From a virus, in the UHGV virus genome UHGV-0149711: a stretch of 19,578 nucleotides of DNA. One strand, written 5' to 3'. The first letter of the stretch is position 1; every line of letters starts with the position of its first letter. Positions 14,336-18,777 of the stretch are shown piece by piece. The translations under genes and the position numbers were made by a program. The notes under the pieces are model-generated. The model worked only from the letters and a program-made list of their open reading frames with translations. It ran no database searches and was not told the DNA's origin.

Positions 14336-15835
14336 TTAAGTTCTCCGTGCGATGGGCCTGATTGGGGCTGGTATCTTTTTCTCTTTTGGTTTTTTGATGT
14401 CGCGCATCATTTTGGCGAAGCGGCGCATCATGTATGCATAGCGAACGGCGGATAGCACGTCGTCGTTAAGCTTGACGATCTTCCCGTTTTCATCACGGTG
14501 ATAGAGGCGGAACTCCTCAAAGAATGGCTCACAGGTGTTGAATACTTTGAAGCGACCATCAAGCATCATGTCGCGCAATTCAGTGATTCCAGGCTCCACA
14601 GCGTTACCGCCATCAGGCCATGTCGCATGCTCCTGCAACATCATAAAACCAGCGTCCGCGTACTGCCCTTTGAGCTGCTCACCGCCGCCCTTCTCATGCT
14701 GGTTTCCGTCATGAGGCCATGCGGTTGGCACTTTATGCGCCCATGATTTAACAGCTCCCCATGCCTGAACAGCTGTTTTTTCTTTCGCCTTCCACACGCG
14801 TGAAACGTAGATTGTGTCTGCGTCCTTATCCCACCAAAGCTGAACCTGCGCCTGTGGGTGATCCCATCCAAAATCCATCCCACCAATTACGTAGAAGTGA
14901 TCAGGACACTCGAACGGCTGACACTTAATAGTCTCTTCCGGTATCTGGAAGATTCGACCGCTACCCATCGTAGGAATACCGCGAGCACGCGCCTCTCTCT
15001 CATGCTCGGGATAGGATGCGATGATTTGCTCTTTCTGCTCGTCGGTGTAGTGCTCAGCGTCATAGATGGTCATGTTGACCACTTTCTGCGACTTGCTGGG
15101 ATTCTTCAGGAACTTGGTAACAACGTCAGACATCCCCATCAGCGGGGTAAACGTCAGAATTGAGAATTGCCCGTATTTGTTGGTACGGGTAAGGCCTTCG
15201 CCATAAATGCTGTATGGTGGCTCTTCGTCAAACCACACGCCGTGGATTGTGTCACCCTGCCAGCGAGCGCGGCCTTGCGAGTATGGTTTGAAGTAGCAGA
15301 TTGAAATGCCATCTTCAACGCCATCAGCCGTGTGATGCTTAACCAGAAGATGATCAACAAGGTTCGGAAAGAAAGGAGACTTCTTCCAGCTAATGATGTC
15401 TTCTTTAGGTATGGAACCGTAGCCTGGCTCATCATTCTCTTCGATACGACCACACAGGATGCGTTGAGTCGTTTTGGTTACAGTCTCGTTTGTCTCGCCG
15501 CCAATCCAGAAGACAACAGGCTCATAGAAACGCTTACCTTTCCACTCCCCACCATATTTACCATCAGCCGGATAGCCTTTTGTTCCCGGATAACGCCCGG
15601 TAAGGTGAAACGCGACTTCAGCAGCCCCAGTAAATGACTTACCAAGCTGGTTCCCAGCCATAAAACAGCGCTCTGGATAGTCATGCCCGGCGTCGATGAA
15701 CTCACGCTGTTTGCTGTATGGCGTAAATTCATATAGCAGGTGTGTGTTCCGGTAGTTCTCTTCTTCTTCGAGTAGCTCGAGCAACTCGATTTGCTCTTCG
15801 TCGCTCAGGTTATCAAGAATCGCGTCCAGTTCCAC
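14336..15835 (-). CDS. Terminase large subunit (P22 gp2-like)
   Basis: 499 aa. [37 protein letters not shown]...GNQLGKS (Walker A)... is near-identical to P22 gp2 as recalled. Its start overlaps the 3' end of the small-terminase gene. Confidence 0.97.
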
Positions 15836-16301
15836 GGTTGAATAGCTCCTTGATACGAGAGCGTCGCTTATCGCGATCTCCCTTATCAGGTGTCACGTCT
15901 TCAACTTGCGACTGCTCTTTGAGGCCCAAATCACGGGCGATGATGTTAGCGTTGAGAAGGTCAGCGGCAGCGCCAGAGAATTTCTGGTCGTAGATGATGT
16001 CTTCCGCTCGTGATGTGACGTCAGAAAAACCTTCCATTGACCGGAAGGTTCCCCATGTTTGCCTGGTGATATCAAGGAAGGTACACAATCCTGAAATAGT
16101 CATGGCTCGCATCTTAGGGACATTAGCCTTAATTATTTCTCCCTGATATGAAAATACCTTACCCTCCCATAGCGGGTTATCATCAGCCCACTCGAAGTAT
16201 TCACAACAAGCAGCCCACAGCGCCTCAGGCGATTCGAATTTAGGATTTCGCCCATGACTACTGCGGGCCTCCCAAAATCGGTTGCCCTTTGGTGCTGCCA
16301 T
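15813..16301 (-). CDS. Terminase small subunit (P22 gp3-like)
   Basis: 162 aa. [38 protein letters not shown]...[59 protein letters not shown] matches P22 gp3 as recalled, with a divergent central segment. SD AAGGGA upstream. Confidence 0.95.
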
Positions 16302-16306
16302 ATTGA

Positions 16307-16396
16307 TTATTTCCCTTCTGCTTGCTTATCCCATTCATCGCGGAATTTGGATGGGTTGTCGAAGCCCTGAGAGCCTGAACAAACTTTGATTACCAT
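16307..16396 (-). CDS. Putative 29-codon micro-ORF immediately upstream of the small terminase gene
   Basis: ATG at 16396..16394 overlaps the stop of the upstream Cys-rich ORF (TAATG). SD AAGGAG is 7 nt upstream. It encodes [29 protein letters not shown] and its stop is 5 nt before the gp3 ATG. Not in the ORF track (below its length cutoff). Confidence 0.25.
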
Positions 16397-16590
16397 TACT
16401 TAGCTCCTTTCTGCTTGCCTGTGTTTGATGTCGTTTCAGCAGCAGCCCCAGAGCAATTAACGCTACCCGCAACACCATATCCATAACCAGTCTTGAAGAA
16501 ATTATTGCCAGTAAATTGGTTAACAATCTTCCCGCAGCACGGGCAGCGTTGGCATTGGCAATAAGGGGATTGATTATTCCAGTGATACAT
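16396..16590 (-). CDS. Small Cys-rich / Gly-rich hypothetical protein (64 aa)
   Basis: I trimmed the track ORF 16396..16665 to the ATG at 16590, which has a strong SD (AGGAGA, 6-nt spacer). Product: MYHWNNQSPYCQCQRCPCCGKIVNQFTGNNFFKTGYGYGVAGSVNCSGAAAETTSNTGKQKGAK. It has no transmembrane segment and carries a CxCxxCxCC cluster. Confidence 0.4.
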   Translation of the reverse strand: MYHWNNQSPYCQCQRCPCCGKIVNQFTGNNFFKTGYGYGVAGSVNCSGAAAETTSNTGKQKGAK

Positions 16591-16963
16591 CTTGTTTCTC
16601 CTGAATGAATGGCAGGAAGTGATTAACCATCCTGTCCAGCATGTAACAGTACGTCTCGTTGGCATCTTCAGGCCTTGTCGTCACGCCGACATCAGAGCAA
16701 ACGTAAAAGCAGACGTGGGCGCACTCATGAACGAGCGTAGCGATCTGCTGATCGAATACTCCAATCAGATAGCATCGCTCACCCGTATCAGTGTTTTCAT
16801 AGTTGCTTGCAAACCCAAGATTGAATGGCTTCTCATCCCCGCTGCCGCCAAGGAATTTATCAGCGTGCTGAAACTGTTCTCTGGTTGTTGCGAGGTAGAC
16901 ATGTGCACTTTGAAACAGCGGAATGGTGAACGCCGGGAGTTTGTGCCATTTGGCCTTAGCCAT
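16574..16963 (-). CDS. Putative zinc metallopeptidase (HExxH motif), family unassigned
   Basis: 129 aa with HECAH at residues 79-83 (nt 16715..16729), preceded by hydrophobic residues (IATLVHECAHV) as in SprT-like or ImmA/DUF955-type peptidases. SD GGAG is 8 nt upstream. Its ATG is 1 nt after the stop of the upstream 80-aa ORF. Confidence 0.55.
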   Translation of the reverse strand: MAKAKWHKLPAFTIPLFQSAHVYLATTREQFQHADKFLGGSGDEKPFNLGFASNYENTDTGERCYLIGVFDQQIATLVHECAHVCFYVCSDVGVTTRPEDANETYCYMLDRMVNHFLPFIQEKQDVSLE

Positions 16964-16964
16964 A

Positions 16965-17207
16965 TCACACTCCGGTGGTGAACAGGTCTAACGCTTCCTT
17001 CGATTTACGCACCGCTTCGATAGTTCGGGTCGTGATATCTGAATTAGCGCCACCTGACTGGAAGTGAATTTTGAATAGCTCAAGCTTCAGCTCGTCAGTG
17101 CCAATGAATTGAAATGCTTCTTCTGCGGCTGCGTTCTGGTTCATGACCAGTTTGTAAATCTCTAACTGGAATTTCTGTTCTTCAGTCATGGGAATAATCT
17201 CTGCCAT
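16965..17207 (-). CDS. Hypothetical small protein (80 aa), first gene of the small-ORF string upstream of the terminase
   Basis: MAEIIPMTEEQKFQLEIYKLVMNQNAAAEEAFQFIGTDELKLELFKIHFQ... SD GGAG is 7 nt upstream. It is tightly coupled to the downstream HExxH ORF. Its size and position recall the small ORF I remember upstream of P22 gene 3, but I cannot verify this. Confidence 0.5.
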   Translation of the reverse strand: MAEIIPMTEEQKFQLEIYKLVMNQNAAAEEAFQFIGTDELKLELFKIHFQSGGANSDITTRTIEAVRKSKEALDLFTTGV

Positions 17208-18165: not shown

Positions 18166-18339
18166 TAAATCCTGGTGTTTGTGATGACTGGCTCTTATCT
18201 CAACGCAGCCCCTTACCGCGCGCCATATGCTCAATATCAAGCATCAGCAATGAGATGTTTAATCTGGATTCACTCCAGAAGTGATCACCACCCTGTCTAC
18301 AGAGCCAGATGTGAAGGATGATGAGTAAAATTATCGCTA

Positions 18340-18777
18340 TCATCGAAGGCATTGCGTCCTGATGTATTCCTGCAGGTAGTTAACCTGCGCGGTTATCTTG
18401 TCGATTCCACTTCGGAGACGGTAATAATTGAGTTCAGCATCTGCTGTAAGTCTTGGGCTTTCTCCATCGCCCATGCCGCTGGCTCCGGTCGTTGACTTTG
18501 CACAGGTGGCGGCGACTTGCAGGCGCTTACGACCAGCAGAAACATCAGCACGGAGACTTTCGATAGTAGCGTTAGCATCAGCAAGCTCCTTTGTGTATCT
18601 GGCGTCGAGTTCTGCTACGTCACGTTGACGCTTCTGCATGTCAGCGATTGTGGATGCGGCCTTATCTCGCTGCTCTTTGTAGGCGATGGCGTTATCACGG
18701 TAATGATTAACAGCCCATGACAGGCAGACGATGATGCAGATAATCAGAGCGGGGATAATCGCGGTTACTCTGCTCAT
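18340..18777 (-). CDS. Rz: Rz i-spanin (inner-membrane spanin subunit)
   Basis: 145 aa. [37 protein letters not shown] matches the lambda Rz N-terminus (N-terminal TM, coiled-coil periplasmic domain). The C-terminal half is divergent. It overlaps the R stop. Confidence 0.92.
18393..18584 (-). CDS. Rz1: Rz1 o-spanin (outer-membrane lipoprotein) embedded in Rz in the +1 frame
   Basis: 63-aa ORF lying wholly inside Rz. It has a signal peptide ending in a lipobox (VVSA-C) and a Pro-rich mature region ([14 protein letters not shown]...), which is the classic lambda Rz/Rz1 architecture. Confidence 0.8.

Follow-up and report, generated by a model that had tools for sequence, protein, structure and literature searches.

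The window considered in the current work, i.e. the whole 19,578-nt stretch of DNA that was analysed, corresponds to the late operon of an E. coli prophage that is P22-like (Lederbergvirus-type), read on the minus strand. Between its lysis and terminase genes it harbours a series of small abutting genes, arranged in the order DUF2560 (80 codons), HExxH (129 codons), Cys-cluster (64 codons, referred to below as the Cys-rich gene), a 29-codon ORF and gp3. The features that are relevant to the analysis are the following:

18340-18777, minus strand: holin, endolysin and Rz genes
following Rz, minus strand: ORF of 50 codons
17464-17994, minus strand: Rha/KilA-type gene
16965-17207, minus strand: DUF2560 gene of 80 codons, the 5' neighbour of the HExxH gene (Pfam PF10834, E=1.1e-43)
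16574-16963, minus strand: HExxH gene of 129 codons
16588-16621, minus strand: 34-nt block CACTTCCTGCCATTCATTCAGGAGAAACAAGATG, corresponding to HExxH residues 115-125 (HFLPFIQEKQD) and to the Cys-rich initiation region
16597-16602, minus strand: Shine-Dalgarno sequence AGGAGA, as read from the sequence, followed by the 6-nt spacer AACAAG and the ATG at 16590
16574-16590, minus strand: out-of-frame overlap of 17 nt, in which the Cys-rich gene begins before the HExxH gene has ended
16396-16590, minus strand: Cys-rich gene of 64 codons
16307-16396, minus strand: 29-codon ORF, as read from the sequence
15813-16301, minus strand: small terminase subunit gene (gp3, P22 type), the 3' neighbour of this chain of genes
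14336-15835, minus strand: large terminase gene, after which the portal and head genes are located

The TGA stop codon of the DUF2560 gene, the product of which is labelled 'DUF2560 family protein' by PGAP in the identical E. coli locus, is positioned 1 nt before the HExxH ATG (TGATATG). E. coli chromosomes contain an identical stretch, and the full 591-nt query was retrieved from 16 of the 5,426 complete genomes. Promoter and terminator scans returned nothing at the junction between the HExxH and Cys-rich ORFs.

The HExxH ORF terminates with a TAA at 16576-16574 and, because 16963-16590 equals 373 (3x124+1), the Cys-rich frame represents its +1 frame. This frame, which is preceded by a TGA at 16683-16681, is open from 16680, contains a first ATG at 16665 and a second at 16590, and ends with a TAA at 16398-16396, the overlap with the HExxH ORF being 92 nt if counted from 16665 and 17 nt from 16590. 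When the codons of the HExxH ORF were shuffled, 43% of the shuffled versions contained at least 30 open codons in the Cys-rich frame upstream of 16590, and the open stretch is therefore at chance level and carries no information. The ATG at 16665 is not kept, other lineages having KTPTK or ATQTK at that site, while the +1-frame translation upstream of 16590 differs by lineage (RQGLKMPTRRTVTCWTGW versus QPSRKTPTKLTATCLIAW) and has a pN/pS of 1.5-5.

Approximately 25 related loci, of which 20 are distinct, were gathered from E. coli genomes, IMG/VR viral contigs and metagenomes, together with the genome of Atlantibacter subterraneus (L009) and a Logan assembly (L007); a scan of the genome collection with the HExxH protein yielded a single locus, its peptide patterns being too specific. 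All loci with an intact HExxH gene exhibit the same two-gene layout, with an overlap of 17 nt; in L007 the HExxH stop codon is located one codon earlier and the overlap is 14 nt. This layout is kept across lineages which differ at 67% of synonymous sites. The Shine-Dalgarno sequence AGGAGA itself is invariant in all related loci, and the complete arrangement of AGGAGA, 6 nt and ATG is invariant in 19 of the 20 distinct loci, the remaining locus (L021) having GTG at the start position. In a 680-nt alignment, counted over the 18 distinct loci that are intact and so without the two frameshifted ones, the 34-nt block represents the least variable window of that size, with 2 variable columns versus a median of 14. 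Both changes belong to L021 (AAGATG to AAAGTG), in which the start codon is kept because the ATG becomes GTG. The conservation of this block can be explained by the Shine-Dalgarno sequence, spacer and start codon overlapping with coding sequence.

The first-pass annotation, the coordinates of which were all found to be correct on re-reading (the ORFs, the ATGs at 16665 and 16590, and AGGAGA 6 nt before the latter), had put forward, as one of two alternatives, independent initiation from this Shine-Dalgarno sequence and the ATG at 16590. At the level of sequence comparison such initiation is supported by the conserved start region, the GTG of L021, the two-gene layout of the related loci and the PGAP call in E. 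coli HCM-25C-3 (L032), which uses the same ATG as start codon.

The predicted 64-aa Cys-rich peptide (MYHWNNQSPYCQ...) reads MYHWNNQSPYCQCQRCPCCGK... followed by a variable Gly/Ser/Thr/Ala-rich tail, and contains the motif CQCQRCPCCGK. The corresponding ORF is probably a real gene, as judged from its pattern of substitution: in three pairwise comparisons pN/pS was 0.19-0.44 in the Cys-rich frame versus 0.97-2.4 in the other two frames, a signal of moderate significance, the diverged comparators (L007, L009 and L021) being few and not fully independent. As calibration, the HExxH gene displays a pN/pS of 0.07-0.32 in its own frame. In the Cys-rich ORF, third codon positions hold an excess of variable columns (P=0.028), and all six substitutions that separate its core (codons 8-29, SPYCQCQRCPCCGKIVNQFTGN) from that of L007 are synonymous. 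The L007 indel is in frame, being 6 nt long, and the length of the ORF is kept at 63-64 codons, with only 61 of 94 aligned bases of the 3' stretch being identical to L007. The C-terminal Gly/Ser/Thr-rich half evolves fast (pN/pS 0.64 versus L007).

A 74-aa homologue (P0268) is encoded on an unrelated phage contig (L024), with YCQCQRCPCCGK being common to both proteins. Its gene stands alone as part of a series of small genes that are coupled through ATGA junctions, and the 3.1 kb of that contig which was examined contains no HExxH ORF. In E. coli HCM-25C-3 (L032, 1288-1576) the HExxH gene is 5'-truncated and adjoins a Gp49-family gene, while the Cys-rich ORF is intact and is called by PGAP/RefSeq as the same 64-codon CDS (WP_130553454.1). 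In most RefSeq genomes, including those with an intact HExxH gene, PGAP leaves 16302-16573 unannotated. None of the 50,697 sequenced phage records contains the Cys-rich gene, its product matches no family in Pfam, PHROG, NCBIfam or PADLOC (the latter returning no matches at all), AF2 produced no confident fold for it (pLDDT 40), and a literature search on these ORFs retrieved nothing. The protein shares the CPCCG motif with Pfam PF14206 (Cys_rich_CPCC). P0268 possesses a second CPxC knuckle approximately 20 residues further on and a match to this family which is sub-threshold (E=0.61, 10.4 bits, cut-off 24.5), whereas the protein encoded here is without the second knuckle and does not match PF14206 at all. 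The CxCxxCxCC cluster may bind metal.

Among approximately 27 variants of the Cys-rich ORF, four are disrupted: A10 and L008 carry 1-nt deletions, P0004 is truncated and P0003 is fused to the 29-codon ORF; the Cys-rich gene is therefore dispensable, or these cases represent assembly errors. The deletions in A10 (L002, 2507-2800; CCC to CC) and L008 (Logan, 130-384; AA to A) are independent, and both shift into the third frame (16335-16526, minus strand), so that each yields a similar chimera of 84 aa which includes a hydrophobic stretch. This third frame, which encodes the TM-like sequence LVMDMVLRVALIALGLLLKRH, was for that reason considered as a real gene in itself and rejected: in L007 only 26 codons are open, in L009 the TM-like stretch is broken up by prolines, and pN/pS in this frame is at least 1. 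As the third frame is unconserved elsewhere, both shifts probably reflect decay or assembly errors. A10 was likewise considered as an independent case of an autonomous module, and was set aside as a microhomology-joined deletion derivative with an added frameshift. Its deletion (L002 2446-2562 versus 18200-18352 and 16574-16640 of the window) joins the 50-codon ORF to the HExxH tail across the microhomology GACAGG.TGGT.ATCACTTC, removing the Rha and DUF2560 genes and most of the HExxH gene, and PGAP labels the remnant as a partial Rz.

The HExxH protein, annotated by PGAP as WP_089583697.1, carries HECAH at residues 79-83 (positions 16729-16715) and matches PHROG 1365, a family of unknown function (E=4.6e-37). 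Its AF2 model is confident (pLDDT 85.6): a small sheet leads into the HExxH helix, which is followed by a long C-terminal helix; the structural neighbours of this model include many small uncharacterised phage proteins, a few being named SprT-like, PolyVal or metalloprotease. Points of likeness to the SprT-like and other zincin metallopeptidases with a C-terminal zinc ribbon are the position of the HExxH motif, on a helix that follows a small beta-sheet, and neighbours with SprT-like names. The match to PF10263 (SprT-like) is sub-threshold (E=0.11, 12.8 bits, cut-off 25.6) and covers residues 73-91 only, and the sole NCBIfam match obtained among the proteins searched, to TIGR04267 (aKG-HExxH peptide beta-hydroxylase), is also sub-threshold (E=0.0024, 17.9 bits, cut-off 40) and limited to residues 75-104, corresponding to the HExxH helix. 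The protein is best described as a stand-alone zincin-like protein and not as an established SprT member.

Orf-129 of phages ST64T and L has the HExxH...NETYCY core and the C-terminal end point in common with the HExxH protein encoded here, and its gene is likewise positioned between lysis and terminase genes. In ST64T and L the HExxH gene is followed by the decoration protein gene dec (PMC8022706). There, dec (orf-134) comes next through a TAATG overlap, whereas in the window the Cys-rich gene comes next through an overlap of 17 nt. The gene located 3' of the HExxH homologue accordingly varies, being dec in ST64T, a PF18894 metallopeptidase gene in ABWA45 and the Cys-rich gene here. The respective proteins end with ...HFLPFFHEPEKEGAK (ST64T/L Orf-129), ...AFLPYIKQD (ABWA45) and ...HFLPFIQEKQDVSLE (the window), i.e. 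the HExxH ORF stops where its homologues stop, the tails past HFLP(F/Y) amounting to 3-12 variable residues. Throughout the family the residues past HFLPF are short, hydrophilic and variable, and their sequence tracks the next gene. In ABWA45 (L003, 2501-3514) the 123-aa HExxH homologue is followed by an unrelated 212-aa HExxH protein (PF18894, PhageMetallopep), two different small metallopeptidase-like genes thus adjoining upstream of the terminase genes. Chimeric proteins were observed in other E. coli prophages (P0261 and P0212), pointing to repeated illegitimate recombination within the HExxH gene; P0261, which is named 'protein NinF', combines a NinF N-terminus with the last ~48 residues of the HExxH protein.

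A fused, single-ORF form was sought from both sides of the junction. An exhaustive HMMER search with the HExxH protein of 1.84 billion cluster representatives retrieved 307 relatives, the best 150 of which, at a median length of 122 aa, align to query residues ~1-120, and a second search, of 5.8 billion clusters, yielded 206 closer relatives, the best 120 of which are nearly all 123-136 aa in length. Among the relatives listed, the few longer homologues have miscalled N-termini or Lys/Glu-rich tails, and none contains the Cys cluster. From the Cys-rich side seven relatives were found in 5.8 billion protein clusters, all of 51-89 aa. A fusion of HExxH and Cys-cluster sequences was found neither among the best 150 of the 307 and the best 120 of the 206 HExxH relatives, nor among the seven Cys-rich relatives. 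The Cys-rich ORF, in its 64- and 89-aa versions, matches no Pfam family at E<=1 and is for that reason not an SprT-type zinc ribbon.

These searches bear directly on the possibility, raised in the first-pass annotation, of a single ancestral gene that was split by a frameshift. In its full form, this reading starts from an ancestral metallopeptidase whose C-terminus carried a Cys-rich zinc region resembling that of SprT, the two ORFs then being the halves of a pseudogene or of a gene divided recently. Such an origin would fit with the sub-threshold PF10263 match of the HExxH protein, the few viral structural neighbours that are named SprT-like, and a distant family member (P0028) which ends in a short CPVCSC motif. 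The HExxH homologues, however, share one end point and lack a Cys-rich extension, neither search side produced a fused protein among the relatives listed, the Cys-cluster homologue of L024 stands alone, the +1-frame translation upstream of 16590 is unconserved, and the two-gene layout, with its overlap of 14-17 nt, recurs in lineages as diverged as those described above; together with the missing Pfam match of the Cys-rich ORF, these findings render a split gene extremely improbable and leave the suggested SprT-like Cys-rich region without a counterpart. Also considered was a programmed +1 frameshift within 16590-16680, by which a fraction of ribosomes would generate an HExxH/Cys-rich fusion and which is judged to be just as implausible. 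All related loci keep 30 open codons of the +1 frame ahead of 16590, and conservation of the 34 nt leading up to the start is unusually high, both of which speak for recoding, yet openness of this kind is at chance level and the conserved block can be accounted for by the initiation signals and the coding sequence that they overlap, the GTG of L021 at the exact start position being relevant to initiation only. Joining the two frames requires a +1 shift, whereas no slippery heptamer (X XXY YYZ) is present in the whole HExxH ORF, no homopolymer of at least four identical bases occurs in the overlap, and no prfB-like or Ty-like +1 motif was recognised in an informal scan by eye of the HExxH codon listing. 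The RNA fold of 16540-16660 is no more structured than that of shuffled sequences (z=+0.43), and Rfam contains no family that matches the 19,578-nt stretch. No single-ORF homologue was found among the relatives listed, and related loci have the same two-gene layout, the outcomes that the first-pass annotation had named as refuting its single-gene reading; the part of the earlier interpretation which invoked a split or recoded single gene is therefore not supported, while the part which invoked independent initiation from the ATG at 16590 stands.

An explanation of a different kind is that the Cys-rich ORF is not a gene, in which case 16302-16573 would represent an untranslated spacer or a decaying remnant, with a fortuitous Shine-Dalgarno sequence and ATG. 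This would be in line with PGAP mostly leaving the stretch unannotated, with family, fold and function searches that gave no assignment, with the absence from sequenced phage records and with the frameshifts of several variants. It is nevertheless unlikely in view of a pN/pS below 0.5 in the Cys-rich frame only in three comparisons, the exclusively synonymous changes of the Cys core, the in-frame indel of L007, an ORF length that is kept despite the divergence of the 3' stretch, the homologous motif in a separate ORF of L024, the conserved initiation region and the PGAP call in HCM-25C-3. It was also considered that the HExxH protein and the Cys-cluster peptide form a functional pair, produced at a fixed ratio from the overlapping genes. 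By analogy with alpha-KG HExxH RiPP enzymes (PMC12636437; compare the faint TIGR04267 match), the former could be a small metalloenzyme which processes or modifies the Cys/Gly/Ser-rich peptide in a RiPP-like enzyme-substrate relationship; alternatively, it could be a zincin whose zinc-binding module is provided in trans. Such a pairing is not favoured and is regarded as quite improbable: the HExxH family is broad (307 representatives), whereas the Cys-rich protein has only seven relatives, HExxH genes elsewhere precede unrelated genes, and both the L024 homologue and the intact HCM-25C-3 copy are without an intact HExxH partner.

The explanation that is preferred, and which on the basis of these comparisons is very probably correct, is that the junction consists of two separate prophage genes with a 17-nt out-of-frame overlap, the Cys-rich gene starting at 16590 and the open stretch upstream being a by-product. 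The segment 16574-16665 would then constitute the 3' end of the HExxH gene, coding for the variable hydrophilic tail of its product, and this tail would double as the ribosome-binding region of the Cys-rich gene. Because the HExxH tail carries AGGAGA, the spacer and the ATG, translation of the Cys-rich gene would begin 17 nt ahead of the HExxH stop codon and in the +1 frame. Initiation at 16590 would occur either de novo on the Shine-Dalgarno sequence or by re-initiation after termination at 16574, 14 nt downstream, and the two polypeptides would be made separately from their respective genes. The open stretch up to 16665/16680 would represent a chance by-product of the HExxH codons and would lie outside the translated Cys-rich protein. 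P22-like and lambdoid late genes are carried on a single late transcript (PMC2629481, PMC8022706). As here, the late operons of these phages contain chains of ATGA/TAATG-type junctions, and overlapping, translationally coupled genes in which the next start codon and its Shine-Dalgarno sequence are located within the last codons of the upstream gene. The overlap described here differs in being 17 nt in length as compared to the commoner 1 or 4 nt of phage operons, and its translational coupling is presumed.

The Cys-rich gene is followed by the 29-codon ORF, the ATG of which overlaps with the Cys-rich stop codon (TAATG) and the end of which is located 5 nt before the gp3 ATG. This ORF is conserved in L007, L009 and L032 with a pN/pS of 0.13-0.43, and in the sequenced phages EC.P3, APC_JM3.2 and E212 there is a 23-codon version that has DUF2560 and gp3 as its immediate neighbours; the ORF may encode a conserved micropeptide or act as a leader ORF for the small terminase gene. 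The Cys-rich ORF ends with ...KQKGAK within the cassette AAAGGAGCTAAGTAATGG, which provides the Shine-Dalgarno sequence and start codon of the 29-codon ORF. The core of this cassette, AAGGAGC[C/T]AAGTAATGG (16394-16411, minus strand), also links Orf-129 to dec in ST64T (L005, ~2180-2200). Cassettes of this type (Shine-Dalgarno sequence plus stop/start overlap) were observed to recur between unrelated gene pairs, with unrelated small proteins ending in (K/E)GAK, and the cassette may serve as a boundary sequence for module exchange.

The sequence that is common to other contexts has its left edge at ~16621-16636, as judged from L009, L021 and A10, and its right edge just past the 29-codon ORF, after which L013, L015, L002, L007, L009 and L021 diverge. 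Because of these two edges, the Cys-rich gene, the 29-codon ORF and the initiation region behave as a mosaic module, which includes ~45 nt upstream of the Cys-rich ATG and which has different neighbours on both sides. In the prophage analysed here this module would be an insertion that separates the HExxH gene from the terminase genes.

With neither recoding nor a broken gene supported at the junction, the locus does not call for re-sequencing. The overlap is an ordinary phage arrangement. The Cys-rich gene is rare. For annotation purposes, the gain consists of two ORFs of 64 and 29 codons between the HExxH and small terminase genes, which display coding-type conservation and are usually unannotated in RefSeq. 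The locus also illustrates how the ribosome-binding site of a following gene can set the final codons of a small phage gene, the tails here being ...QEKQDVSLE or ...(K/E)GAK, and the junction cassettes coincide with mosaic boundaries.
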